A DNA stretch of 64,000 nt, taken from positions 32,001 to 96,000 of the IMG/VR virus record IMGVR_UViG_3300042468_000945. One strand, 5' to 3'. This DNA is from a virus. The notes below the pieces were generated by a model that was given only the letters and a program-made list of their open reading frames with translations, did no database searches and had not been told where the DNA came from. Below, piece by piece: positions 26,099 to 44,131 of this stretch; positions within the stretch are counted from its first letter, which is position 1; every line of letters starts with the position of its first letter. The translations under genes and the position numbers were made by a program.

Positions 26099-26437
26099 TT
26101 AAGTTCCAAAAATAATGCTGTCTCTAAACTTAAATAGAGGATTAATTTTTAGGTTAATAATTGCTTTAGTTAATTCTTCGTTATAATCAATTTCATAACT
26201 AATTAAACCAAAGTAAGCATACTTCTTGTCTTTAGATGTTTCAGATTCCAAAATTAAAGTTTCATTTAATTTTAAATGCGTTAAGTCTACTTTATCAATG
26301 TCTAATGTTAAAATTAATGTGTTTTTCTTTGTTAGTTCCACATTATTAACACTAAAACAAAGTTTCCTATCAAGATAACCTTCCTCACCAGGGTTTCCTT
26401 TCTTTAACAAATATAAATAATACTTTAAATTATCCAT
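26099..26437 (-). CDS. Hypothetical protein
   Basis: 112 aa ORF whose start overlaps the glycosyltransferase stop by 8 nt. Confidence 0.55.
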   Translation of the reverse strand: MDNLKYYLYLLKKGNPGEEGYLDRKLCFSVNNVELTKKNTLILTLDIDKVDLTHLKLNETLILESETSKDKKYAYFGLISYEIDYNEELTKAIINLKINPLFKFRDSIIFGT

Positions 26438-27722
26438 GACTTTCTCTACAACACTTCTTATATTTTAATCCAGAACCACAAGGGCAAAGTGCATTTCTAT
26501 CTACTTGACCCCAAACTCTACCACTTATTTTTTTATTAGGTCCTAGTTTTCCTTTTTGTGCTCTATCAATAATATCTTTCCAAGCATAAGGCCACTTATG
26601 AAAATTATTTTCTAGTGAGTATTCATTAATTGCAAGTTCTCGATTTTCCTTTTGCATCTTCTCTCTTCTTACAGTATTGGTTACAAGTTCTTCTAAAGCA
26701 GAAAACCATGTACTATAGTTACCCTCACCACTACCCACAATTAAAACACTTTCAGGGTGCTTTCTTTGGAGCTTAGAATATGGAGCAACATTACTTGCAA
26801 TCATGGCTTGACCAGCTGCAAAACCTTCAAGAAGTTTTAAAGGGGATTTTGAAATATTAAATTCACAAGGGTGAACAGGAGCTAAACCAATATCTGCACC
26901 AAACAATCCTGTTGGGTGATCCATAAAGTGTCTTGGTTCCACCAATTCATATCTACCTTCTGGAATGATATTATCTTTATTAAGGTGATTAAAGATGTCT
27001 GGCGCACCATAGTAAGCAAAAATAGTTTCTGGATATTTCTGTAAGATTCTAGAAATAGGAACCATTATCTGCTCTAAATCAGTAAGGTGCGAACTACCTC
27101 CACTCCATTGGATCACAACTTTATCTTTCCATCTATCTGGTTTTTTAATTTTTATAGGTTCAAAGAATGGTTCTCCGTCTTGCCAAGAAACATTAACCTT
27201 CCAATCTCTAAAACTAAAATCAATATAGTTAGGCAGGATTGCGTAGTTTGTGTTAAACTCAGAATAAGCACCAGCTAACTCCTCAGTGGTTACAGTCAAA
27301 CCGTGACAGTTTTCCATAAACTTCTCTAGCCACTTTAAAGTATCTGAACCAGGATAATATGCAGTATAGGCTGGACTTGTTTTTAAAACTTTATGCAGGT
27401 CGTCATCAACCTCAAAAACAATTATCTTTCCATCCCATTGAAGTGTTCTAAACATTTCATAGGCTTCTGGGCTATTTTGTCTTGGTGCAATAATAACATC
27501 TGCATGTATGAATTGATTCAAATTTTGAGATGTTCCATATACAACATCTGCTCCATGCATTTTTAACATGTGGAGCGGATTAATTACCCTATAATGCCCA
27601 CAAGCACCATTATCAGCAACTAAACCAACAACTTTAAGTCCAGCATACTTGTCGCTTACTTTGTAGTCTGGAAGTTTCCTAGATGTTGTGGATACTTTCT
27701 CAATTAAACTGTTTGTTTCCAT
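26430..27722 (-). CDS. GT-B (GT4-like) glycosyltransferase with C-terminal SEC-C Zn-binding motif
   Basis: CGHYRVINP, VFEVDDDL, ILPNYID, QWSGGSSH, DIGLAP...NISKSPLKLLEGFAAG...IASNVAPY are GT4-like. The protein ends VDRNALCPCGSGLKYKKCC (SEC-C consensus RN.PCPCGSGKKYKKCC). Confidence 0.85.
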   Translation of the reverse strand: METNSLIEKVSTTSRKLPDYKVSDKYAGLKVVGLVADNGACGHYRVINPLHMLKMHGADVVYGTSQNLNQFIHADVIIAPRQNSPEAYEMFRTLQWDGKIIVFEVDDDLHKVLKTSPAYTAYYPGSDTLKWLEKFMENCHGLTVTTEELAGAYSEFNTNYAILPNYIDFSFRDWKVNVSWQDGEPFFEPIKIKKPDRWKDKVVIQWSGGSSHLTDLEQIMVPISRILQKYPETIFAYYGAPDIFNHLNKDNIIPEGRYELVEPRHFMDHPTGLFGADIGLAPVHPCEFNISKSPLKLLEGFAAGQAMIASNVAPYSKLQRKHPESVLIVGSGEGNYSTWFSALEELVTNTVRREKMQKENRELAINEYSLENNFHKWPYAWKDIIDRAQKGKLGPNKKISGRVWGQVDRNALCPCGSGLKYKKCCRESHG

Positions 27723-27742: not shown

Positions 27743-28153
27743 TTATATAGTATAATTTACCCTATCAAAAACTAAACCTTTCTGTAAGTCTAATTGACTG
27801 CTAACTTGAATTACTTTATCTGGATCATCTTTTGATGGTAATTCAATAAGTATAAATACCTCATCTTTATCTAAAGGGATACACGTAACTTCAACACTAG
27901 ATAATGATAAGTCAAACAAGAGAGCACTTCTTACCCTGTTTTCAATTCTTAGCCTTGTTGCTGTAGAGTTCTCTTCACCTATAAAATCTTCTAAGCTTAC
28001 ACCAATTTCAGGTTCAAGTAAGTTATCACCTGCTGTTGTTTTTAGTAAAAATACAATTTGTTGTGCTAACTGCTCATCACCTGAAACAACAGCTAAGTCT
28101 CCGTTTGCTCCAATAATAAGATCTCCGTTATCTGTTATTTTTAAATCTGTCAT
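27743..28153 (-). CDS. Baseplate wedge / sheath initiator (gp25/XkdS-like)
   Basis: DLKITDNGDL..GDLAVVSGDEQLAQQI..LLKT..G.....PEIGVSLEDFIG is the gp25/DUF2634 pattern. Confidence 0.8.
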   Translation of the reverse strand: MTDLKITDNGDLIIGANGDLAVVSGDEQLAQQIVFLLKTTAGDNLLEPEIGVSLEDFIGEENSTATRLRIENRVRSALLFDLSLSSVEVTCIPLDKDEVFILIELPSKDDPDKVIQVSSQLDLQKGLVFDRVNYTI

Positions 28154-28692
28154 TTTAAGTTCTCCATGTAATAAGTTAAGTGATCCATTTCTGGTGAGTC
28201 TACTAAATCATAATCAACAAATAAAGTATCATTATTGCAGTAATTAGATAGGGGCTTTTTATTTATAATTTCCCCTGTTTCTGGAATAACTCTTGTTGTA
28301 TCATCCATAACATATATTTTACTAATATCAACATCTTTTTTAATTAGTAAAACATTATAGTCTTCATTTATTTTGGGATTAAAAACTTTATTACCTACAG
28401 GTAATGAAAACCAATCAGTATTTGGAAATGAAATAAACTTAGAGGTTACAATAGTTGAATTAGAAAGAAGGTATAATCCACCACTCATGTCCCCAAGCAT
28501 TCTTACCTGTCCAGCATAGATATCAAACTGACCTTGATCTCTAAATATAGCACCTACAGGAAGATCAGGGTGTCTTAATCCAATATCACTATCTGAATAA
28601 GTTAATTGATTTGATCGTATAGTATCATTCGTAACTTCTTCACTATACCTATCAATAGCTATCCTTGTTTGATCAAACATACTTAAACTCAT
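28150..28692 (-). CDS. Putative central spike-associated protein (beta-strand repeats)
   Basis: IGLRHPD...IFRDQGQFDIYAG..MLGDMSGGLYL resembles gpV/gp5 beta-prism strands. Located directly upstream of the gp25-like gene. Confidence 0.45.
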   Translation of the reverse strand: MSLSMFDQTRIAIDRYSEEVTNDTIRSNQLTYSDSDIGLRHPDLPVGAIFRDQGQFDIYAGQVRMLGDMSGGLYLLSNSTIVTSKFISFPNTDWFSLPVGNKVFNPKINEDYNVLLIKKDVDISKIYVMDDTTRVIPETGEIINKKPLSNYCNNDTLFVDYDLVDSPEMDHLTYYMENLK

Positions 28693-29390
28693 TTTATTGT
28701 TGTCCCTGGCCCAAACGGATTCATTGGCTTAACAATGTTTCCTGTATTTGGTTTATTTATTTTATCTAATACTGATGGTAAGAATAAAGAAGTACCAGTT
28801 GCATTATTAGTCCCCTGAGAGGTTTTTGTTAAACCAGGTGTTTGTGGTTTTTCTTTATTACTTTTCCAGTTTTCAGGTACTTGTTGTGCTCCAAGTTTAC
28901 TGCCTTCAGGTGTTGGTCCTATGTCCCCAACCATAGGTGCAGGTGTACCAACATCGTTTGTTAAAGTACCACCTCTAGGTTGCTTCTTGGTCCTACCAGC
29001 AATAATAGTAGGCATTTGTATTCTACCAGCTGCAAAGTTAATTTCTGCCTCAATAAAATTATCACGAAGAAGCTCAGAATTAAAGTCACCGGTTTTTCCA
29101 GTATTGCCAGCTAGACCAGCCCAAGAAACTTTAGGGTTGAATATGGTACGATAATCCACCCCTTCAGAACTTCTACAAACAACTGCAAAACCTATTTTAG
29201 ATGCTTTAGCTTTCTGTGCCCAACTCTCCTCACTATAAAGATTAATACTAGTCGTAGACCTCATCCAAGGACTCTTGGCAAACTCTGCAACGACATCACC
29301 AGCATTTACCAAAATACCGCTAGTATATGTTAAGTTCTCTCTAATATTCTTTATATTATTCTTATCTAATTGATCTTTATAGTCGCTCAT
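28689..29390 (-). CDS. Putative baseplate spike/OB-fold protein with Pro/Thr-rich tail
   Basis: Start re-called to the ATG at 29390 (MSDYKDQ), 5 nt after the upstream stop. The track start at 29468 overlaps the peptidase gene. Function inferred from position. Confidence 0.45.
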   Translation of the reverse strand: MSDYKDQLDKNNIKNIRENLTYTSGILVNAGDVVAEFAKSPWMRSTTSINLYSEESWAQKAKASKIGFAVVCRSSEGVDYRTIFNPKVSWAGLAGNTGKTGDFNSELLRDNFIEAEINFAAGRIQMPTIIAGRTKKQPRGGTLTNDVGTPAPMVGDIGPTPEGSKLGAQQVPENWKSNKEKPQTPGLTKTSQGTNNATGTSLFLPSVLDKINKPNTGNIVKPMNPFGPGTTIK

Positions 29391-29395
29391 AATAA

Positions 29396-30100
29396 TTAAC
29401 CAACAAATTCCCAGTGCCAGCTCTCGTCTAGCGAACGCCCATCTCTCAAAAGAGGTGGGTTTTCCCAACCATACTGTCTACCAACTCTATCCATCCACTT
29501 GTATGTAGGTGTTTGGCGCATTCTTGCTGAACCTGCTACTGATTGTGCTCTTGAACCACTAAAATATAGTTCAGCAATATCTACTGCCAATGCCCAACCA
29601 TGCGGTGACCTTCCTGGTTTAGCTGCTCTTCCACCACCTATTGATGCTTGGTGATTATAGGTTCTATATGCTGATGTAACAGTTAAACGAACACCATCTT
29701 TTCTTGCATGCTCCATTAGTTTTAACCATGCGTCAGCGGCATCAGGTCTTAACCAATGAAAACCTTTATATTCTGCTGTTCTCGTACTTCTTTTACCTAT
29801 GGCTTTTAGTGCAGATAATGGCAACCTACCATTACTATAACCACCCCAAGCAGAGGGTCTTTTACCTGTAGGGTAGTTTGTACTTGATTGAATTGTATTT
29901 TCTTGTGGTACTTCAGCAAACTCTTCTGGGTCATCAAAAGACAATCCAAGCATATCAGATATGCCCTGGGAATCTCTCAATGATTGGTAGCTTAATTCCT
30001 TACCAAAACCCATATTTGATCGCTGCTCATACAAATACCTTGTAAAAGTAGCTTCTAATTCATCCATGTCTGGAGGGATATTTGATGAAAATTGTTCCAT
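29396..30100 (-). CDS. M15B (VanY-like) Zn peptidoglycan peptidase with N-terminal tag
   Basis: LRPDAADAW..L...A..DGV.L.VTSAYRTY..Q, AAKPGRSPHGWALAVDI (SxH..D) and ESWHWEF (ExWH). Confidence 0.9.
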   Translation of the reverse strand: MEQFSSNIPPDMDELEATFTRYLYEQRSNMGFGKELSYQSLRDSQGISDMLGLSFDDPEEFAEVPQENTIQSSTNYPTGKRPSAWGGYSNGRLPLSALKAIGKRSTRTAEYKGFHWLRPDAADAWLKLMEHARKDGVRLTVTSAYRTYNHQASIGGGRAAKPGRSPHGWALAVDIAELYFSGSRAQSVAGSARMRQTPTYKWMDRVGRQYGWENPPLLRDGRSLDESWHWEFVG

Positions 30101-30101
30101 A

Positions 30102-30779
30102 TTAATATTGATACAGATTATTAGTTCTCATTAAATTAATTAATTTAGATGCGTATTCTGTATTTGTACCAGCATATCCAGCTGCCTGTAAAGCTCTAGC
30201 TACGTCATCTGCATTTTGTAATTTACCAATGCCTTGTTTCTTATACCTTGGTCCTGTAAGAAATCTTCCATGATCCATAATACTTTCTTCCCAGTTATGG
30301 TAAACCCTAAAGTTTGCTGTAGTAACAAACTGATTACTACCCGATCCTTCTCTTGTTCTTAAAGCAATTGTACCAGCAGGTCCAGAACCTTTAATACCAA
30401 ACAAGTTATTATATTTAGAAGCTAAATCACTTTTACCCCAACCGCTTTCTTCACACGCTTGTGCAAGTATAACAGCTACAGGAATATTGTATAGTTCAAA
30501 AGTTTTTTTAGCTCCTGGAAGTATTTTATCAATAAAGTCTTTCTTTGTTTTAGGTATGGGATTAGTATTTACAGGAGTGTTGTTATTTGTTGGCCCATTT
30601 GCAGCATTGATTATTTGTTGAAAAGCATTACCTACAGCCTGGAAGTAATTATTTGTTGGACCATATGGGAGTTTACTTTCAAACCCCATATTTGCACGTT
30701 GTTCAAATAAATACCTTTCAAGGAGCTTTTCAAGGTGTGAAGGGTCTTCTGGAATTATACTACTAAAATTTTCATTCAT
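30102..30779 (-). CDS. GH73 glucosaminidase/muramidase (FlgJ-like) with N-terminal tag
   Basis: FIDKILPGA, VILAQACEESGWGKS (catalytic E), NNLFGIKG, FRVYHNWEESIMDH, LQAAGYA...YASKLI. Confidence 0.92.
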   Translation of the reverse strand: MNENFSSIIPEDPSHLEKLLERYLFEQRANMGFESKLPYGPTNNYFQAVGNAFQQIINAANGPTNNNTPVNTNPIPKTKKDFIDKILPGAKKTFELYNIPVAVILAQACEESGWGKSDLASKYNNLFGIKGSGPAGTIALRTREGSGSNQFVTTANFRVYHNWEESIMDHGRFLTGPRYKKQGIGKLQNADDVARALQAAGYAGTNTEYASKLINLMRTNNLYQY

Positions 30780-33700
30780 TTTTAGCTCCTATATTTTTAA
30801 TCCTCTTTAAGTATTCAGTGTCAGATTGTGTGTGGCCATAATCTGGAACTTCTATACCAACTAGAGCCGCTAAGATAGTTGTACCTTTAGCCGCTAGACC
30901 ATCATGTTGTCCACCTAACCAACCACCCAAGAAATTATCAAAAATAGATAGATCATCTCCTACAACACAACCTTGGTGTCCTCTAATACCAGCAACATAA
31001 GGAAGGGATGTACCATTACTATCTCTTGTTCTCAGAGGAATAATTGTTACAGCTTGTCTAGCTCTTAGTGTAGAGTTAGCATAGTCTATAATAGAAGCAC
31101 CAACTGTAAACCTAATAACCTCAACAGCAGCCCTTAAAACAATAGCAGGAGATAGCCATGATACTGCTTTAATAGACGGAGCAATTACTTTCTTCATTCT
31201 ACTTGCAGCTATGGCGACTTTTTCATTTTTGAAAACAACTCCCAACTCCTTAGCAGCTAGAAAATCATCAACTTTTTGTCCTGTTGCTTTAAGCGCATTC
31301 TCAGCAATTTTAATTCTTTCAACTAATCTAACAGGATTAGAGGCTTCCCTTACAACAGCTTTCAGTTCATCATCGGCAGTTGCAATACCAGCTGCCTGAG
31401 CAGCAGTAAATTGTTGTGCTGTTAAACCTTTTCGATCAGTAAGTAACTCAACAGTATCTAGTTCCTTAATAAAGTCATTCAACCTACCCGCATCATTAGG
31501 TAAGTCTGTTTCAATCATATAGTTTAAACTTTCAACGTCTTTTAAAAGATCATTCAGTCTCTTTTCAAGAACTATTTTTCCTTCAACTGTAGTAGCTGCA
31601 TTATAAGCAGTTTCAGCTTCTTTAATTTGTTCTGCCCTCTTAGCAATTAATTCATAGGCATTTTTTATCTCTTCTTTAATTTCTGGTTCTATTAATTTAA
31701 GCTGGTCCTTGAGTCTTTTTGCCACAATACTATCAGCAATCTCAATAACTTTATCTCTATCTAATGTGTCTTCAAACTTAGCTCCTAACTCTTTTAGAAG
31801 ATCAACATAATAAAGTTGACTTTCTACAGCGATGTTTAAAACCTTTTTCTGTAGGCCAGATGCTAGTCTTAAAGCTGGTAACTCAAGGTCTAAGTCTCTT
31901 GATCGTCTTAAAATATCAAATAAGTTATTACTTGATTTGTCATTAAGAATTCTTTTTAGTTCGTTTAATTGTTTTCTTCTTTTTGCCCCATAAAATGGTC
32001 TGAGTAAAATAGGCTTCTTCAATTCCAAATCAATCTCAGAAAGAAGTTTTTCTCTGATTTCTGACAGAGAATTAGCATAGAACTTAGTATTTAATTCACT
32101 AGAACCTAAAACTTCTAGGGCTTGGTTAAGTTCCGCAACCCTCATGTTGAAAGGCATATATAGTTTCTTAGTTAAGTATGCTGCTACAACTGTTGTTACT
32201 GCCCTTCCAACCATGTATTGACCTACTTTATTTACAGGTCCAACTGATAAAGCAGTAACTAGTTTTGTTCCTTGTACGCTAGTAAATGGAAGTGCAACAC
32301 AATCTGGAGTTATCATAGTGACAAACCCCCTTTCTGAGTTTAAAATGTGTGTAACGTTTCTTACAAACAAAGGACCTTCAAGACTATTAATAGTATCATT
32401 CAATAAGACAATATCATTTGGTTTAATACATGCTTGTCCTTGAATAGAGAACACCCCAGAATACATAGTTTTAACTGTATCACACAAACCAGTTAGAACA
32501 GAGTTTTCCACTGCTGGAGTATCTGGTACTCCTTGTAATGAGTCACCCACAACAGGTACAAACTTACCAACAGCATCTTTAAAAGATTCGTAATAACCTT
32601 TTTGAGCGGCTGTTACATATAATCCAGTATCAACAAGTAAAGTTTTTCTTTCTGCTGGTTGGATATCACTATCAACACTATAGGTTAATGTTCTAGACAT
32701 GTGATCTGTTGAAGCCACACCATTAAAAGTATTAACACCTGTTGCGTCAGTAAAGACTGTTGAAGCATCACTAGATATTGAATTTGACAGCAAGTTTAAA
32801 CCAGTAATTGCTGGCCATACTTGGGTGTAACATTTCCATTTAAGGTGTTTTGTGTAGTTATTAACATCTTTTAATAGTTCAGCTTGTTTATCAGAAGTGT
32901 TTTCAATGTTTTTAAAATCGGTTACATAAGATACTGTTACCAATCTCGGATTCTGATTTATTTGATCAGGACCAAACTTTGGTGATACGGAGAATCTGGC
33001 TCTCACAATATCTCCGTCTGCTCGTTTTAATGTAACATACTGTACAAGATCTCCAAGAACTGACCCCTGAACAAATCCTGGTTCAACTTCATTCCTCTCT
33101 AATACTTTCAGGACAATATCTTTTGAATTAGTAGCCTTTAAATATGCAGCAACCTGGGGCAAAAGTGGTTTAGTATTTGTAGTTTCTTCGTTTTCCAACA
33201 AAGGGGGTCTTTGGTATTTTAGAATAGATGGGTCATAAGCATAATTAAATGGATACCACCAACCACCAAAGAAGAGGGTTGATCTTGTATGGAATGGTTC
33301 TACTGCTGTAACAAAATCCATTACTGCCATTCTACATACGTTAGCAGTCTTCCAAACAGAAGGTTCTTTAACACTAACAGAAATTAGAGTAGTACCAGCC
33401 CAATTATAAATTGCATTCTTGCTGGCAATTTCACTCAACCAATTAAATTGTTGGTACATCAATCCTTTTCCTGCACCATACATATTCATAAATAATTCAG
33501 GAGTGTGGTATGTAAGTCCAGAATAATACACGTCACCAAAGTGTGGCGTTACACACCTCTTACCATACCTACCACCAGTGACTACACCAGCTATATTACC
33601 AGCTATGTCATTAGGAACCATAGTTTGGGCAATAATGTAAGCAGGTTCAGTTCCTGTTCCTGCAAAACCTGTAGGACTTTGATAACCTAAACCACCATCG

Positions 33701-36700
33701 TGAGTTTTTTGTAATCCATCAACAATAGGTTGTTGGAGTTCCCAACCATCACCATCACACTCAACATTAACAAACCCATTACCTACAGGTACATTCAAAA
33801 TCCTACCATTAAATACAACTGGTAATTCAGCTGCATTTGAGTTATAGCCCATCCTTATTTGAATTCTTGCCCCTGGATTTAGAGCAAGCATTTCAAGATG
33901 GTTTTTCTGCCACAATCTAAGAAGATCTTTGTTAGGTGTCTTGGTAATGATATTATCCCAAACCCTTCCAGCAACCACACCTGCACCAACTATTGGGTTA
34001 ATACTTCTCTGGTTTGCGTTAACACTATCAACAGCAATTTTCTGTCTCAAAGCCTCTACCTGAGAGTACCTTGTTAAAGCTGTAAACATATTAGAGAAAG
34101 TTACAAAAGCTTTATGAGACGGGTCTGTTTTAGTTTTAAAGACTTCAATTGAAGATATACCACCTCTTGTGTAGAACTGATCCCATAACTTTAAGTTACC
34201 TTCTGCAAAGTAAAACCCTTCATTAATAATTAGAACTTTAAATGTAGGGTATGCTTGAGCTAATCTTCCCCACAACCCAAATCTACGAACATCAACCATA
34301 GATGAGTATATAGCATTTTCACTGTGGGGGATTATACCAAAATCAACTTTAAGTCTAATAAGTGTAGCTTCTTCGGCAGTTAGATTTACCTGTTCAGCTA
34401 GTCTTGCACCAACAGTTAACCTAGTTACTACTTGTCTTTGATCAGAAATTCTGACTCTTTCTCCGCTTGGGGTTTGATTTGTAGCTATGTTTACTGTGTT
34501 ATTAGCATTATCAACTAAGATGTATGCGTTAAACGGATTAAACATAAGGTCATATTGATCTGTAAATGATGGGTGGATTGCAGAACCAAGAACTCTTGAA
34601 ACTTCAATATACCCAATCCAATAATCATCAATAATAGCTGAGTTGGGTTGTCCAACAGCTTGCATTAATTTCTTAATAGTATTTCTTGCTTGAGTACCAT
34701 ATCTTTCTACTGAAAGATTAGCTGCTGCCCTATTAAGTTCAGCTTCAAACTCTTTATTGAATCCAGTACCTACCCAAAACTTAGATCTACCAATAGAGGT
34801 TAATCTTAGGTGAGTTGCTATTAATGCAATGGTTGCATTATTCTGGTACTTCTTTAAGTAACCAGAATATACAGAACATATAAGTTCAACCTGTGCATTA
34901 AAATCTGGGTTTGCTTTGATTTCTTCTAAGGATAGATTAAAATACCCACCATCACCAACTGCGGCAATTCTATTTAAACCAAACCCTGATCTTCTTAGTA
35001 CAAAACCTCTAATAACGTTTGGATCAATCTTATATTTACTTGCATAATAATCAAATACATATGCTGATTCTAACATTGCTATTGTTGGATCAACACCTGA
35101 TGGACTATAAACATCTGGTTTTTTGTTTTGATTAGCTAAGTAGTAAGCATAATTAGAAGATTGAATTGCTGTTTTCTGATATGTTGATCTCCAATTAAAC
35201 TTGTCATCAAAAGTTGTTTTCTTTATCAGGTCAATTAATGGTTCCCATGTAGGTTCTTTACCTTCTCTTTCTCTTTTCCTAAAGTAACTTAATAAGATTG
35301 GGAATTCTTCTGGAAGAGATTTAAGAGTATCAGAGTTAAGATCATTATAAACAGGTTCGCCAAACAAAATATTGCTTGCCATATCTCTTACTACTTCACC
35401 TGCTTTTTTATACTCTTCACCAAATAGTCCACTTATTCCAGATAATACTGCATTAAAAGCATCAAACACACCATCTAAATAGTCAACACCAGCCGTGGCT
35501 CTAGGCGGAATTGGGACCAGGAAGTGAGACACAAGTGATTCACCTTTTAACTTATAAAGAGATCTTCTCTGTAGACCAAAATCTGCGGCTTCTTTTAATT
35601 TTCTAATTCTCCATGCAAAACTAAAGTAGTCTTTAGCCAGCATTGTATTTTCTAATCTAGCACCAGTAAGCTCATCTTTATTTGTATTTTGGTTAATTAC
35701 ATTCGTAATAAAAGCATTATTACCTGGACCATTTAGGTACTCTTCATTTTCTAATGTGTAGCCTTGTCTGTCATCAGTACCAACAGTTGTAACATTCCAC
35801 CAAGCACCCTCAGTAGAGTTGTACCCTTCATTAGTTTTTTTAAGTAATTGAGTAGCATATTGAACGTTTTCTTTTGGTTCAGAATTATCTATAGCCTTGT
35901 TAATCTGTTTTTCATAATCTTCAACACCACTAGATAAATAATCTTTACTATAGTTTGTATAGATATTAAAGATAGGGTCATACTCTCTATAAGCAATACC
36001 TCTCTTAAAATCGTTGTCGGCAATCGCTTTTGGTCTTAAATCTTTATCAATACCACCAAACTGGGCATCTGCCGCCCTGTCTAATAATGCACCCCACAGA
36101 GAATCAGGGTTGTAACAAATATAAAAATCTGAGTCAGCCCACAGCCCATTATTATATTCACTATAAGAAATCTCTGCTTCTGTACTAGAAATAAATTTTG
36201 CTATTTGCTCTCTTCTTTGTCTAATAGAAAGGAAATCTTCACAGATATCAATAATAGATAGTTCGTACTCAGTAAGGTCTTGAGCAGGTCTACCACTATT
36301 TCTTCTAATAGCTTCTTCTCTAAGAATATCAATCCATGAGTTTAGTTCTCCCTTTGTAGGAAGCCGCATATCTGGAAGTAATTCTTCTCTTGCCAATGAG
36401 TATTGTAGAGAGAAGTATTCGACTGCTTTCTCTACTAAAGGATCAGGTTCGTTTGGTCCAGGTCTTTGGAAGTTAAGTACTCTTCCTTGTTCCTGTAAAG
36501 TTGTTGGTAAGAATTTAATCTTTTCAGCTGCTTGAGCTTTTGGATCAAACTCAGTAAACAATATTTCAAATTCCCAAACATCTGGGAAGCCTTGCATATT
36601 GTTGAAACTAAGGGTTACAGGCATAACAAAATCAACTCCCATTAGTTGGAAGATGTTGTTATTTACCTGTAGGAATGGGATGCTGTCATAGCTTTCTGTG

Positions 36701-38678: not shown

Positions 38679-39413
38679 CTATCTTTCTATTGTGTGCGTT
38701 CTAAGTCTTACACCAGTATGTACTTGTCTTGGATCGTTTTCTGGATATGATCCTGGGCTATCTTTTCTTTCCGTCTTCTCTCCAGCTGAGTTATCAACAA
38801 CATTTTGTATGAGTGTCCTAGTTGAAGCATCTGCTTTTCTTAAACCAACTGTTGCTCTAAGTGTTGCACTATGAGCAAAAGGGACTACACCTACTTCTAA
38901 CAACCTAGGAATGGTTTCTTCAGAAAGGAAGTTTTTCAAGTATGGTGCTTTCTTGAGAACGGTTTCATAGGTAGAGTCAATTGAGTTTACAAATTCACTT
39001 TTACCCTTACTAACTAATAGAGTACGAAGTTTGTTAAATAAATCTTTCTGAGTGCTTTTAGCATACTTATATGATGCAAATCCAGCTAAAACAGTTAAAC
39101 CTTGAATACCAACTGCTGTGATTGGATCATAACCTTTCTTCCTATCAGCAACAACACCAGCACTCATCTGGGCACCCATAAAAAACATGGACCTAAACCC
39201 TTCTGAGTTTATTTTTCTGTTAGTAGCTGAAAAAGCATATGCCGCAACACCAGAGAATATTCCAATTTTCCTGGTTCGATCTACGTCTTCTTGGTCAGAC
39301 TCGGGCAACCCAAAACTTCTTGCTATAGACTTATCGTTAGATAACGATACGGCTGAAAGCAAAGCCATACCTACAATACCAGTAGCTGTAGATATTTTAT
39401 TGTTAATTGACAT
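38679..39413 (-). CDS. Predicted membrane protein (3-4 hydrophobic helices)
   Basis: Hydrophobic segments ATGIVGMALLSAVSL, IGIFSGVAAYAF, MFFMGAQMSAGVVA and ITAVGIQGLTVLAGFASY. Confidence 0.6.
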   Translation of the reverse strand: MSINNKISTATGIVGMALLSAVSLSNDKSIARSFGLPESDQEDVDRTRKIGIFSGVAAYAFSATNRKINSEGFRSMFFMGAQMSAGVVADRKKGYDPITAVGIQGLTVLAGFASYKYAKSTQKDLFNKLRTLLVSKGKSEFVNSIDSTYETVLKKAPYLKNFLSEETIPRLLEVGVVPFAHSATLRATVGLRKADASTRTLIQNVVDNSAGEKTERKDSPGSYPENDPRQVHTGVRLRTHTIER

Positions 39414-42400
39414 TATCTTATGTCTGCCATCATTTGCTCATAAGCAGCTAGACGTACAGGTAGTCCTTGAGTCGTATTTTCATCTTTAGTCATGTTTCCA
39501 TTAGAATACTTATTAACAATATGACTAACCTTTTCTTCTAATGCTCTTTGTTGGTATTTATTATTAACAAAAGTTTTCATATCAAGATTTAATTGGAAAG
39601 GTTGTGTCCCACCTGTAAATACTCTTGCTGGTGTAGGGTCACCTGGAATTTCTGATTGAGCACCAATAACTCCAGGAGAATTTTTAGACGCATTACCACC
39701 AGAATACTTTTCTTCTGGATTCTTATTTGCCATAAGTAGTGTGGTCAATCCACCAACTAACAGTAACGCACCTACAATCTTTTTATTCTTACCAACATCA
39801 AACATGTCAGTACCAAGAATACCTTCGTGTTGTGCCTTAATTGCCTCTCTAAAAACAGTATCTGAATGTTCATTTGCAGTTGCAGCTGTTGTTGCAACTT
39901 TTTGTGCGGCTTCATTCATGGTTACAGTAGTTTTTTCAGCGGCAGATTGTCTAACTGTAAACCTTGCAGCAACTTCATTCAAGTTTCGCATAAGATTACC
40001 AGGTTCGGAGCTTCTTATTGTTTCTGCCTGTTGCTTAATATACTCAGTAGCTATTCGTTGTTGGGTATGTTTGTTAGCCCCCTCTTTATGTAGTTGATGC
40101 ATTAGTTGCTCTGCTTCAGAAAATACATTATCTAATAAAGGGGTTCTTTCGCCTAATCCAGAAATAGTTTCACCAGCTTCCCTTTCCATATCAGCAACAG
40201 CTTGTTGACTTATTTTAGGTATAAGATCTCCAAGACCTTCGTTGTACTTCCTTTGGAACATCCTTACAGTCATGTTCTTATCTACAGCATAAGCTCCTGT
40301 TATAAAATCTTTTAATGCTAGGTCAGCCCTCTCCGCCCCCATAAAAGATTTTTCTAGTGCTTCAGTAAGATTTTTTTGAATTTGTTTAACTGTATCTAAT
40401 TCATGCTCATCAGCTAACGTATGTAGTTCATTTATTCTCGTTGCAATAACCCCTTGTACACGTTTTTTGTAAGATGAGCTTTTTAGTTTATTAACTACTG
40501 ATGGGGTGGTAATTTCATCTATAGGAGTATCAAGAGCCATGTCACGAGCTTGTAGATTATTTCTTGCACCTACGTCGTTAAATAATTTAGTGATTTCATT
40601 TTTATTTCCAGTTCTTCCTGAATCCATAAAAGTATCATGTACTGCTGATCTTCTTACATATGCTTCAAAATCTTCTGGAGTTGTGTTATCAGTAATTGAT
40701 AGTTTAGGTCCACTAAAACCTCCACTAGTGTCACGACTATGTATATTTAAATATGGTTGACTTAAAATTTCTCCTGGCCTTTCCAAAGACATGACATCCT
40801 TTACCATTAGCATTGCTTGTCTTAGCTTATCAGTATCCCCATCCATACCATCCCTTATTAGCCTACCTATTGTTTGTCCAAAGTCTGACTCCATAGCAGG
40901 TGTTAATTCTTGTGTGTACATTTCTCTGTAGGACTGGTCTGTGAGTGCTTCACGTAATCGTAATCTTAAAGAACTTGTAAATGAAGCAGCATTATCTGGG
41001 TTTCCAGGTATGTAAGCCCTATCAACAAGAGTATCAATAGCTTTTGTTAAACTTAAACCTTTTCCAATTCTTGCATCAAAATCGTCAAGAACTTCAGGAG
41101 TTAACAGTTTATTAACTTCTTGTGAGACCACAAATTCATGGAAACCAAACAACTGATCTGTCATTTGGGATGTTACATTACTTTTTTGGTATTTTGTTTT
41201 ATTGAAGAAGTTTAAATCATTTATAATTCTATGTGCATCACTATGTGCTACAGTCTTTGTGGACACATTGATATCCTTAACAGCCTCAGCAGATAATCTA
41301 TCATCTTCTACGGTGTAAGATTTAAACTTCCTAAACCTCAACCCTAAAGAGTTTGCACCAGTACCAGTTAGATTTGAATACTCTCCTGTTTCAACAAATG
41401 TACCATCAGGTTGGATGATAAGGTTTTCCATAACAGCCACCATACCTTTACCACCAACTTCATCAGTTTCAAATGCTTTTAGTTTATAGGCTCCTCTTAA
41501 TGATGTCCCACCATCACTAGGGTTATAATAAATGGTAGAATTATTTGTATCAGCCATACCTTTAAAGCTAATATTTTCTAACCCTAATTCATCTCTAATT
41601 CTAAACTTCTGGTCAACTGCATCCATGCCACCTCTTATTTCTTTTTCATTTAAAAGTCTTCTGGATGCTTCCCTAACGCTTGCATTACCTATATCAAATT
41701 TTCCACTTGCTTGAGTTAATACAAGTAGATCATAGTTCTTCTTTGCCCTGGTTGCTTCAAAAATTCTCTCAATTTTTTGTATTGCCAGATCACCACTTAT
41801 ACTTTCGCCTTGAAACTCCACAATTTCTTTTGCTAGGTTAGGTCTTTTAGCTATAACTCTAATTCTGTCTAAAATCTCTTCAAAGTGGTAACTCCATTGC
41901 GTACCCACAAATTGAGCTTTTTCAAAACTTTCAGCAACTCTAAGAAGTGCATTAAGCTCATCGCCACCATTAAAATCAACTATGCTCTTTACTCCATCAA
42001 TATCTTTATAACCAAGCCCCATTCTTTCAATAACTGTTCTAGTACCAGCTTTCCCATTTTTTGGATCATGAGCAACTTGTTTCATAGATACATCAAATAT
42101 AAGACTACCTTCTCCAAGCATCTGACTAGCTTCTAATCCTCTTCGTAGGTGCTCTTGCACAGGTCCCAAAGAGTCTGTACCAAGTAACCTAATTGGTTTA
42201 TTACCAGTTGATTCTTCTAACATAGCAAAACCAAGCCTACTCTGATTTCTAACTCTCATGTAGTCAGCATTTGTTTCTACTGGTTTAGCATCAATATATT
42301 GAGGTGTTGCTTGCTTTGCTTGTAGTTGTAAAGGTTTAAACTTTATGGTTTCAATGTCAAAGTCACTAATAGATGCTCCTTCTGGTAATTCACCAAAAGT

Positions 42401-44131
42401 AAGCTTATTTAGCTTTCCTCTTTTTTGAAGTTCTTTTACCTCATCTAATTGTGTATAATCATAAAACTTTCTAGTTCTATTTTCTTCGTCATATCCCATA
42501 ATAACGCTTTTTTCTGTAAGATATGATTCGGGGCTCATTTCTGGGTGCATATTTAAAGAGAATTCTACTACTGGATTATCAACATATTGTCCAGCTTGAG
42601 TAAGAGTTTCTTTGTTGTTTTTTCTTAGTATGTTGTGTTTAAGTTTTAAAGTTGATACCTCATCTAAAGTTAATTTAGCTTCAATTTCTTTGTGTTCTTT
42701 AAGTAAATCCTCTAACTCAACTTCAGTTGAATCAGATAGTTTTCTTAGTGTTAATGCTGATATGTTTATAGAACTACTATTAGGTAGTTGAGAATTTAAA
42801 ATTTTTCCTAAAGCCTTGTCTTGTAAAGTTATTGTACTTTTGTTATATTTTAAAGTCTTGCCTTCTAAGATATCTGTAAACAATGTCTTCTTATCAATGG
42901 AGAACATTCTTTGCTCTCCATTAGGAAACACTTCAGCTGGGTTTGCAAGTACATAGTTTGCTTTAAGTTGATCTAAGGAATATCTTTTAGTGCTCTTATT
43001 TCTGTGTCTTGCTTGTGCCGCAGTTCTTCTGTTACGAAGTTTTTTAAATCTTAGTTTATCAACGTTCTTAGCTCTGTAATCTAAATAAGCACTTTCAAAC
43101 AACTCATTTGCGCCTGATGATGTCATTCTACCCTTTTCTGCATCTTTAAGTGCATCATCAAAATTATATTTACCTGTTGAGCTTGCTCTGTCTAACATTG
43201 AACCTAATAATGGTTTGTACCCATTCTTAGAATTATTAAATAACCCAGCTGTTACTTTTTGACCAGGAATCCCACCCCACGCTATTGTAGCTAAATATTG
43301 AGCCCTTTTTGATATAGCAGTACCCTTGCCAGGTTCCTGTCCAATCTTTTTTAAAAATTCTGGAATATATTTGTCGTTATCACCTAACCATTTGAACCTT
43401 ATTTCATTTAGAAAATCATTATCTCTTGACATTGCAAATTTAGGTGTTTCTAGTCCCTTCTTTCTACCAAAAGAGGATGGACCCCTATTTTTTACCCTGC
43501 TTTTAAATTCATCTTGACTAAGTATACCTTCAAATTTTGGAGGAATAAACTTCTTTGGCCTAAGATAATTCATTTTAGAAGATGATTTCATCTTCTCAGT
43601 TAAATCTCTTGCAACATCTTCCAAGTACTCCTCAGAATAAAATTCTTGATTTTCGCCTAAAGAACTGCGAATAATTTCAAGAACTTCTTGTTCTGACATA
43701 TTGTGCTTAGAACTCTCTACAAGATTAGTAGCTATGCCTAAGAGCTTTTCTTGTAGGGTCTTATCATCAGTATCGTTGATGATAGAAAGCATAGCCCGAA
43801 AGACTGCTCCTTCTTCTGTTTCAATTTTAGATAAAATCTCTTGGTTGCCTTTTAAGACTCTTGAATGTAGATCAGCCCTATCTTTTAACACCTCCTCTGG
43901 TGTAAGCTCCTCTATGTTCTTTCTAACGGCTTGCATACCAATATCTTCAAGGTCTTTGCCTTTGTATTGGTCTAGGTAACCATCACTAGCTCTTAAAAGG
44001 TAATATAACAATCCTCCACCAGCTGATAAGGTAACAATATTTTGTACCACATAATCAGTTTTTGTCTTTTTATCCCTAACCGTATCACCTGGACTAGTTG
44101 GGGAATTCTGGAGTTTGTCTGTTCTACTCAC
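39413..44131 (-). CDS. Large helical virion/ejection-type protein with possible degenerate DEDD exonuclease domain and C-terminal TM segment
   Basis: 1572 aa, GTG start. LIFDVSM / FVGTQWSYHFEEIL / YDLLVL resemble Exo I/II motifs. IVGALLLVGGLTTLLMA near the C-terminus. Confidence 0.55.
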   Translation of the reverse strand: MSRTDKLQNSPTSPGDTVRDKKTKTDYVVQNIVTLSAGGGLLYYLLRASDGYLDQYKGKDLEDIGMQAVRKNIEELTPEEVLKDRADLHSRVLKGNQEILSKIETEEGAVFRAMLSIINDTDDKTLQEKLLGIATNLVESSKHNMSEQEVLEIIRSSLGENQEFYSEEYLEDVARDLTEKMKSSSKMNYLRPKKFIPPKFEGILSQDEFKSRVKNRGPSSFGRKKGLETPKFAMSRDNDFLNEIRFKWLGDNDKYIPEFLKKIGQEPGKGTAISKRAQYLATIAWGGIPGQKVTAGLFNNSKNGYKPLLGSMLDRASSTGKYNFDDALKDAEKGRMTSSGANELFESAYLDYRAKNVDKLRFKKLRNRRTAAQARHRNKSTKRYSLDQLKANYVLANPAEVFPNGEQRMFSIDKKTLFTDILEGKTLKYNKSTITLQDKALGKILNSQLPNSSSINISALTLRKLSDSTEVELEDLLKEHKEIEAKLTLDEVSTLKLKHNILRKNNKETLTQAGQYVDNPVVEFSLNMHPEMSPESYLTEKSVIMGYDEENRTRKFYDYTQLDEVKELQKRGKLNKLTFGELPEGASISDFDIETIKFKPLQLQAKQATPQYIDAKPVETNADYMRVRNQSRLGFAMLEESTGNKPIRLLGTDSLGPVQEHLRRGLEASQMLGEGSLIFDVSMKQVAHDPKNGKAGTRTVIERMGLGYKDIDGVKSIVDFNGGDELNALLRVAESFEKAQFVGTQWSYHFEEILDRIRVIAKRPNLAKEIVEFQGESISGDLAIQKIERIFEATRAKKNYDLLVLTQASGKFDIGNASVREASRRLLNEKEIRGGMDAVDQKFRIRDELGLENISFKGMADTNNSTIYYNPSDGGTSLRGAYKLKAFETDEVGGKGMVAVMENLIIQPDGTFVETGEYSNLTGTGANSLGLRFRKFKSYTVEDDRLSAEAVKDINVSTKTVAHSDAHRIINDLNFFNKTKYQKSNVTSQMTDQLFGFHEFVVSQEVNKLLTPEVLDDFDARIGKGLSLTKAIDTLVDRAYIPGNPDNAASFTSSLRLRLREALTDQSYREMYTQELTPAMESDFGQTIGRLIRDGMDGDTDKLRQAMLMVKDVMSLERPGEILSQPYLNIHSRDTSGGFSGPKLSITDNTTPEDFEAYVRRSAVHDTFMDSGRTGNKNEITKLFNDVGARNNLQARDMALDTPIDEITTPSVVNKLKSSSYKKRVQGVIATRINELHTLADEHELDTVKQIQKNLTEALEKSFMGAERADLALKDFITGAYAVDKNMTVRMFQRKYNEGLGDLIPKISQQAVADMEREAGETISGLGERTPLLDNVFSEAEQLMHQLHKEGANKHTQQRIATEYIKQQAETIRSSEPGNLMRNLNEVAARFTVRQSAAEKTTVTMNEAAQKVATTAATANEHSDTVFREAIKAQHEGILGTDMFDVGKNKKIVGALLLVGGLTTLLMANKNPEEKYSGGNASKNSPGVIGAQSEIPGDPTPARVFTGGTQPFQLNLDMKTFVNNKYQQRALEEKVSHIVNKYSNGNMTKDENTTQGLPVRLAAYEQMMADIR

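Follow-up and report, generated by a model that had tools for sequence, protein, structure and literature searches.

Immediately downstream of the gene for a giant baseplate hub, two adjacent genes of an uncultured phage encode peptidoglycan hydrolases that begin with the same short N-terminal sequence, here called the tag. The genes lie in IMG/VR virus record IMGVR_UViG_3300042468_000945, which is 118 kb long and estimated to be 66% complete; the part of the record analysed here, referred to as the window, is a stretch of 64,000 nucleotides (positions 32,001 to 96,000 of the record). The gene next to the hub (slot 1) encodes a GH73 glucosaminidase, the following gene (slot 2) encodes an M15B/VanY-type peptidase, and genes of the baseplate module come after them (Table 1). 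The original prediction, made from the letters of the DNA, was that the tag is a docking module that loads interchangeable wall-degrading enzymes onto the baseplate or spike as a plug-in lytic cargo system.

The two hydrolases share an N-terminal tag

Residues 5-39 of the GH73 protein and residues 4-38 of the M15B protein are identical at 20 of 35 positions without a gap, as counted by hand, and when the whole proteins were compared by BLASTP it was the N-termini alone that aligned (E=1e-10). Translated in all six frames, the complete 118-kb record contained, at E<=10, only two matches to the first 45 residues: the query itself and its neighbour (E=4.7e-9). The shared N-terminus is real and is not a product of chance. 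Past the tag there is no similarity between the two proteins: the linkers differ in sequence and are predicted to be disordered, and the catalytic domains belong to different Pfam families, GH73 and VanY. The degree of identity, its coordinates and the different catalytic folds behind the linkers had all been noted in the original prediction, and our recount and the alignments bear them out.

The tag is built from a short motif, one predicted helix and a small hydrophobic motif. In an AlphaFold2 model of the M15B protein, made with eight orthologues, residues 12-29 are predicted to form a helix (predicted local distance difference test (pLDDT) score ~60-68), residues 30-89 are of low confidence and the catalytic domain follows; we believe that residues 30-89 are probably a disordered linker of ~55 residues. 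The amphipathicity of the tag is moderate and partly significant, and its hydrophobic pattern repeats. None of the tags contains a hydrophobic segment, the top hydropathy of any 15-residue stretch in any tag being 0.94, and the tag and linker regions of eight proteins matched no Pfam family at E<=10. Given this lack of a Pfam match and of a hydrophobic stretch, the tag is not a signal peptide, a signal-arrest-release (SAR) segment or a known wall-binding repeat, in agreement with the earlier claim that it is neither a hydrophobic signal peptide nor a recognised wall-binding domain.

The enzymes are a glycan cutter and a peptide cutter

The GH73 protein matches the Pfam family Glucosaminidase (PF01832) with 115.2 bits (cut-off 30.2; E=3.9e-33) over profile positions 4-123 of 123, and its AQACEESGWG sequence fits the AQAxxESGWG-type motif of the family. 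We take the Glu of this sequence to be the conserved catalytic Glu of the GH73 family. The nearest catalytic relatives of the domain carry endolysin annotation. The M15B protein matches VanY (PF02557) with 60.9 bits (cut-off 25; E=1.4e-16) over profile positions 2-131 of 132. It displays the zinc-ligand pattern of such enzymes (His-x6-Asp plus a distal His; SxHxxGxAxD...WH) as SPHGWALAVD and ESWHWE, and H167, D174 and H229 are invariant across 8 orthologues.

In other groups of phages (among them L036, L038, L040, L052, L064, L096 and L098), domains related to this M15B domain mostly form the C-terminal end of large tail proteins. In some, the M15B-type domain ends one or the other of a pair of neighbouring tail proteins, the choice varying with the genome, namely a 'MSWETFKQNILR…' protein or the 'M.AI.PTKNH…' protein that follows it. 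In other groups, an M15B-type domain ends hub-like proteins of 1150-2250 aa that follow a ~100-aa gpX-like gene. The placement of M15B domains across phage groups looks like the domain hopping of tail lysins.

The arrangement recurs in four related genomes

Relatives were sought in IMG/VR by means of both enzymes, an alignment of M15B orthologues and the conserved C-terminus of the hub. Four further independent genomes of uncultured jumbo phages were found, L003 (235 kb), L034 (194 kb), L033 (240 kb) and L134 (150 kb); L032 is the same sequence as L034 and was counted once. Gene order is kept in all five genomes of this clade: hub, enzyme 1, enzyme 2, a homologue of the 233-aa protein, a homologue of the 180-aa protein, the gp25-like protein, a glycosyltransferase and a Baseplate_J protein. 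In the window and in the four relatives alike, the peptidoglycan-hydrolase domains are thus encoded within the tail/baseplate module.

The catalytic families differ between the genomes and the division of labour does not. The slots hold GH73 and M15B in both the window and L003, SLT and M15B in both L034 and L033, and GH108 and CHAP in L134, so that slot 1 encodes a glycan cutter and slot 2 a peptide cutter in every genome, with five catalytic families behind the tag. All ten enzymes carry the tag at the N-terminus. When each genome was searched in six frames with its own tag, exactly two places were found. For this reason, we describe a two-member system and not a broad cargo label. The predicted portability of the module, with interchangeable wall-degrading enzymes behind it, is thereby upheld by five families and matched tags in five genomes; the idea of a general cargo system is not, with two members per genome.

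When metagenomes were scanned with the M15B alignment, the matches listed included no new member of the clade; a single-protein scan with the 180-aa neighbour gave no match, and neither did blastn of the locus against cultured phages. Insertions were seen at two of the related loci. In L134, the SEC-C glycosyltransferase gene is split by an intein with a LAGLIDADG homing endonuclease (L134:9457-11913; Pfam LAGLIDADG_3, Hom_end and Intein_splicing), and in L003 only, a 212-aa open reading frame (ORF) with a GIY-YIG-like N-terminus (…KVYIGSAVYLKRRL…) separates the M15B gene from the baseplate gene that follows (L003:7486-8124) and probably encodes a homing endonuclease.

The two tags of a genome are matched

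The ten tags of the five genomes were aligned and compared over a core of 22 columns; six orthologues with diverged tags (P0005, P0007, P0008, P0010, P0013 and P0014) lay outside this pairing. The two tags of one genome share 9-13 of the 22 core residues (mean 0.51), compared with a mean core identity of 0.21-0.23 for same-slot tags of different genomes, and the true pairing of slot-1 with slot-2 tags is the top score of all 120 permutations. The case of L034 is instructive: its M15B protein is ~58% identical to that of the window over residues 73-234, yet their tags share only 2 of 22 core positions, whereas the L034 M15B tag is identical to the tag of its own SLT neighbour at 13 of 22. The type of tag drifts between phages while the paired tags stay alike within a genome.

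Recent gene conversion was considered as the source of this likeness and rejected. Where both tags of a genome have the same residue, the codon is also the same in 27 of 56 cases, and codon usage alone would give 25.7; third positions agree at 36-55% within tag pairs, and synonymous sites are saturated. Since synonymous sites are saturated and codon identity is close to expectation, the likeness of the tags is kept by selection on the protein. These data also bear on the idea, already disfavoured, that the shared N-terminus is functionless, a remnant of duplication or of repeated recombination between neighbours. The genes are adjacent, the tags are short and recombination between neighbours is common in phages. 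However, five genomes have preserved the pairing even though their tags are otherwise only ~20% identical and synonymous sites are saturated, and the tag has outlived replacement of the catalytic domain at least three times in slot 1 and once in slot 2; we therefore hold a mere remnant to be very improbable.

The matching could have a different origin if the tags bind each other. In such a case a homotypic helix would join the two cutters in a mixed complex, which might or might not be attached to the tail afterwards, and self-recognition would explain why the tags match. That the two tags of a genome are always mutual closest relatives, that there are exactly two of them and that the core, predicted to be helical, repeats a hydrophobic pattern and is in part significantly amphipathic would all suit this arrangement. 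However, a helix of 18 residues is short for a stable coiled coil, the strict position behind the hub gene is left unexplained, and both Bacillus phage KLEB27-3 (gp036) and contig L135 encode, after the hub, a single enzyme with an N-terminal helix-like segment and no partner enzyme with which it could pair. We regard pairing of the tags with each other as unlikely.

The tagged genes are coupled to the hub and baseplate genes

The features of the locus are collected in Table 1. The hub stop codon overlaps the start of the GH73 gene (ATGAATGA), an AGGAG motif lies 7 nt ahead of the GH73 ATG, a 1 nt gap separates the GH73 stop codon from the M15B start, and 5 nt separate the M15B stop codon from an ATG (29390) of the gene for the 233-aa protein. 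With genes that overlap or lie 1-5 nt apart, both enzymes are co-transcribed and translationally coupled with the hub and baseplate genes. A programmed frameshift joining the hub to enzyme 1 was considered and rejected, as the overlaps range from -2 to 35 nt and the offset is unreachable by a -1 slip.

Table 1. Features of the hub and baseplate locus, in coordinates of the window.
Feature	Position	Strand	Basis
Giant baseplate hub protein, 2634 aa	30772..38676	(-)	gp147 homology, phrog_20474
Slot-1 enzyme, tagged GH73 glucosaminidase, 225 aa	30102..30779	(-)	Pfam PF01832
GH73 protein tag, residues 5-39	30663..30767	(-)	20/35 identity to M15B tag
GH73 catalytic domain, residues 90-222	30114..30512	(-)	Pfam; AQACEESGWG motif
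Slot-2 enzyme, tagged M15B/VanY-type peptidase, 234 aa	29396..30100	(-)	Pfam PF02557
M15B protein tag, residues 4-38	29987..30091	(-)	20/35 identity; predicted helix 12-29 = 30014-30067
M15B catalytic domain, residues 115-234	29399..29758	(-)	Pfam and orthologue alignment
233-aa gene, next after M15B, candidate spike	28689..29390	(-)	Orthologues aligned; present in 5/5 genomes
Conserved 180-aa baseplate-module protein	28150..28692	(-)	Synteny; position equals 0305phi8-36 gp149
gp25-like sheath initiator/wedge, baseplate-module marker	27743..28153	(-)	Pfam Sheath_initiator E=3.2e-9, GPW_gp25, phrog_120
Glycosyltransferase with C-terminal SEC-C motif, baseplate module	26430-27722		

Further downstream in the window, the gp25-like gene is followed by the SEC-C glycosyltransferase gene and then by the gene for a Baseplate_J protein (Pfam). 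The start listed for the 233-aa gene was a TTG at 29468, which gives a 259-aa ORF that overlaps the M15B gene by 73 nt. Because the ATG at 29390 sits 5 nt past the M15B stop and fits the lengths of the orthologues (231-270 aa), it is the likely start and the TTG is probably over-extended. The 233-aa protein had no significant match to gpV-like spike proteins by hhalign, and its AlphaFold2 model gave no usable fold (pLDDT 33). It may be the spike. Thus, of the earlier statement that the enzyme genes lie between the hub and spike genes, the upstream half is confirmed by homology to gp147 (see below); the spike identity of the 233-aa gene is not confirmed.

The position of the genes speaks against a role of the tag in the phage head. 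In phage T4, internal proteins that are otherwise unrelated share a short N-terminal peptide, and the heads of jumbo phages pack many proteins. By analogy, the tag could direct proteins to the head or mark them for processing, as the capsid targeting sequence of T4 does, in which case the enzymes would travel in the capsid, lose the tag to a prohead protease and be ejected with the DNA. However, the genes lie within the hub/baseplate block, away from the head genes, only two proteins per genome are tagged, the ten tags have no protease-site motif in common, and a disordered linker of ~55 residues would have no role. There is, in our judgement, hardly any likelihood of such a function.

The giant hub belongs to a lineage with hub-borne lysins

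Residues 152-2127 of the 2634-aa protein are collinear with residues 263-1410 of gp147 of Bacillus phage 0305phi8-36 (tblastn and BLASTP; best E=6e-23), and the protein matches phrog_20474 (E=4e-74). The two proteins hold the same position in the tail module. Residues ~2061-2123 weakly match the Photorhabdus chain 9qgm_8A, which fits a gp27/VgrG-type hub core. On homology and synteny, the protein is assigned as a gp147-type hub of the gp27/gpD family, with a gp27-like core at residues ~1450-2130 and a C-terminal part at ~2130-2634. A 1572-aa tape-measure candidate is encoded at 39413-44131. gp147 has been described as a 'hyperplastic' homologue of the T4 gp27 hub with wall-degrading domains, including an N-terminal transglycosylase (Hardies et al. 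2007, PMC2147016), and we confirmed NlpC/P60 and M23 domains at its C-terminus. The window hub itself matched no Pfam family at E<=0.01. A stretch of the hub gene at 35812-35910 is SLT-like below threshold (12.6 bits, E=0.007) and could be what is left, in degenerate form, of a transglycosylase such as that at the N-terminus of 0305phi8-36 gp147.

Lytic domains on the hub or encoded just after it are found in other phages. The hub of Moorella phage MTATph1 has a weak M15-like domain at its end, just past the conserved C-terminal hub motif, and the hub of Staphylococcus phage 812 bears a CHAP 'cleaver' (PMC13433997). In KLEB27-3, gp036 is encoded directly after the hub, is annotated as 'structural protein' and consists of a helix-like N-terminal segment, a Gly/Ser linker and an SLT domain. 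A phage contig binned in a Kiritimatiellae metagenome-assembled genome encodes one M15-like protein of a similar build to KLEB27-3 gp036. The C-terminal hub motif (PL…G…P[YF].AGI.GH.G.VVGD…D..L; window 30775-31100) follows hydrophobic helices, is strongly conserved and is common to the clade, KLEB27-3, MTATph1 and the Kiritimatiellae-binned contig.

We scanned for possible partners of the tag by looking for segments that the window and L003 have in common and that are changed in L034. Residues ~2020-2040 and 2243-2262 of the hub and residues 25-45 of the 233-aa protein behave in this way, as do many others; the segments that change together with the tag type are leads only and carry no statistical weight.

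Lysis genes and the endolysin alternative

About 10 kb before the start of the window, on the minus strand, lies a gene (G000:C1:20983-21846; L129:1984-2847) whose 287-aa product begins with an Amidase_2 domain and ends in an extension of ~110 residues. The gene is in a non-structural region and has an orthologue in L003. The protein is plausibly an endolysin.

It could instead be argued that the tagged enzymes are themselves the endolysins, lysing the cell from within, with a tag that regulates or exports them by binding a holin-like protein or a chaperone, or that keeps them inactive until release. Free-standing endolysin-like genes are found just after the hub homologue of BtI1 (PMC2147016). 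In MTATph1, the gp149-like and gp25-like genes are separated by two genes for small, holin-like membrane proteins and one for an Amidase_3-SLH endolysin (L127:10630-12031), so that a lysis cassette sits inside the baseplate module of that phage. L034 and L033 yielded no further endolysin candidate from the five families searched, and the closest catalytic relatives of the GH73 domain are, as stated above, annotated as endolysins. Given the lysis genes in the module of this lineage and the lack of another lysin in L034 and L033, the endolysin alternative keeps some weight, and these same observations count against attachment to the tail. However, no holin-like or other small membrane-protein ORF was found between the hub and gp25-like genes at any of the five loci, and the tagged enzymes showed none of the canonical endolysin traits that were looked for, whether an adjacent holin, a signal peptide or SAR segment, or a wall-binding domain. 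In addition, the separate Amidase_2 protein is available in the window genome and in L003, the enzyme genes are translationally coupled to the hub gene, and related M15B domains are typically fused to large tail proteins elsewhere. On balance, we think it improbable that the tagged enzymes are endolysins.

The tag is confined to the clade at close range

A full HMMER scan of 1.84 billion representative proteins with a profile of the ten tags returned clade members and one other protein, P0133. The latter is a repeat protein whose score sums seven weak repeats; we take it to be an artefact and rejected it as a tag carrier. In IMG/VR, the profile found the L003 contig only, and a word-based search for which the tag was the sole query returned nothing but the protein it came from. 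The ESM Atlas yielded generic helices only, and in 0305phi8-36, MTATph1, KLEB27-3 and L135 the profile found nothing. As held-out tags score only ~25 bits against tag profiles, this negative limits the tag family at close range only. The profile search proposed in the original prediction therefore places the tag on hydrolases of this clade and reveals no carriers beyond it, with the qualification that remote tags would be invisible to such a search. In the open-access literature, we found no paper on a short matched N-terminal peptide of free-standing tail lysins.

Discussion

Based on these observations, we lean, by a modest degree, towards the view that the tag is a non-covalent docking handle for lysins that are borne by the virion. 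In this model, two free-standing hydrolases would each be fastened by the ~35-residue tag, without a covalent bond, to a single partner protein of the phage at the tip of the tail. The giant gp27-type hub, whose gene lies directly upstream, is the likeliest partner, or else a core protein next to it. One glycan-cutting and one peptide-cutting enzyme would then be borne by the virion on flexible linkers of ~55 residues, and these would open the cell wall at infection. Because attachment would rest on the handle alone, the catalytic part could be replaced, by recombination in the linker. Paired handles would stay alike while the type of handle drifts because both enzymes must fit the same partner; matching handles are what would be expected if two enzymes fit one rapidly changing site, and this agrees with the observed tags. 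Docking to the tail is favoured by the coupling of the genes to the hub gene, by the hub-fused lysins of relatives, by the related M15B domains on large tail proteins of other phages, by KLEB27-3 gp036 and by the presence of a separate Amidase_2 protein.

Several points temper this proposal, in addition to those raised for the endolysin alternative. The helix is predicted at moderate confidence (see above), and the matching of the tags could also stem from the enzymes binding each other. All members of the clade are uncultured metagenomic contigs, and we infer the binding of the tag, the identity of its partner and the presence of the enzymes in the virion from the genes.

A more far-reaching proposal would be that the tag is a self-sufficient, transferable address that loads any fused protein onto or into a contractile tail via a rapidly co-evolving site on the hub. 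It would then be a phage counterpart of the leaders of extracellular contractile injection systems (eCIS) and a general means of mounting hub cargo non-covalently. We consider this possible but doubtful. If the docking handle exists as we propose, it would explain the free exchange of entry enzymes, with five families in five genomes, would provide a clean natural case of a peptide and its binding site co-evolving, and would supply a short tag with which proteins of choice could be loaded onto phage tails in laboratory strains. The system is simple, consisting of two small proteins, one peptide and a few candidate partners.

The proposed arrangement can be compared with several known systems. 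The hub homologue gp147 of 0305phi8-36 occupies the same place in the tail module and likewise ties wall-degrading enzymes to the hub gene. In gp147, however, the NlpC/P60 and M23 domains are covalently part of the hub, whereas in the window each enzyme is a small protein in its own right, and the two begin with short matched peptides. The study of 0305phi8-36 also noted that a paralogous domain is reused as the virion anchor of several proteins (PMC2147016). The lysin genes that follow the hub in BtI1 encode C-terminal wall-binding domains and no shared tag (PMC2147016), unlike the enzymes described here. The lysozyme domain of T4 gp5 and the CHAP cleaver of phage 812 (PMC13433997) have the same function as we propose, that of a tail-tip hydrolase for entry. 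In both of these the enzyme is a domain of a structural protein, whereas in the window attachment would be non-covalent, with two enzymes per type of handle. Wall enzymes at the tail tip are thus known, and in every case compared the enzyme is a domain of a structural protein.

The payload leaders of eCIS, such as the Photorhabdus virulence cassettes (PVC) and the Serratia antifeeding prophage (Afp), are likewise short N-terminal sequences that are common to unrelated cargo and serve a contractile particle. PVC and Afp leaders direct cargo to the injection particle and can be moved to other proteins; PVC loading requires the AAA ATPase Pvc15, and the cargo resides in the tube lumen (PMC11495950; PMC10097599; bioRxiv 10.1101/2023.11.13.566157). 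In searches made without a dedicated leader model (Pfam at E<=10 and the tag profile in 1.84 billion proteins), the tag had no similarity to eCIS payload leaders. Here, by comparison, the cargo is always exactly two wall hydrolases, and these are encoded inside the baseplate module of a true phage.

The anchors of tailspikes and tail fibres, such as the P22-type head-binding domain and those of multi-tailspike phages, combine a conserved N-terminus with an exchangeable C-terminal enzyme, and one type of anchor is shared per virion. These anchors are folded, comprise at least ~100 residues and belong to trimeric polysaccharide depolymerases at the periphery of the baseplate, whereas the tag is a single short predicted helix on monomer-sized hydrolases encoded next to the hub gene. 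The T4 capsid targeting sequence is a short N-terminal address on unrelated proteins that targets them to the head scaffold and is cleaved off; in contrast, gene position here indicates the tail, and only two proteins are tagged. The closest relatives of the system are hub-fused lysins, and its closest functional analogues are the payload leaders of eCIS and the shared anchors of tailspikes.

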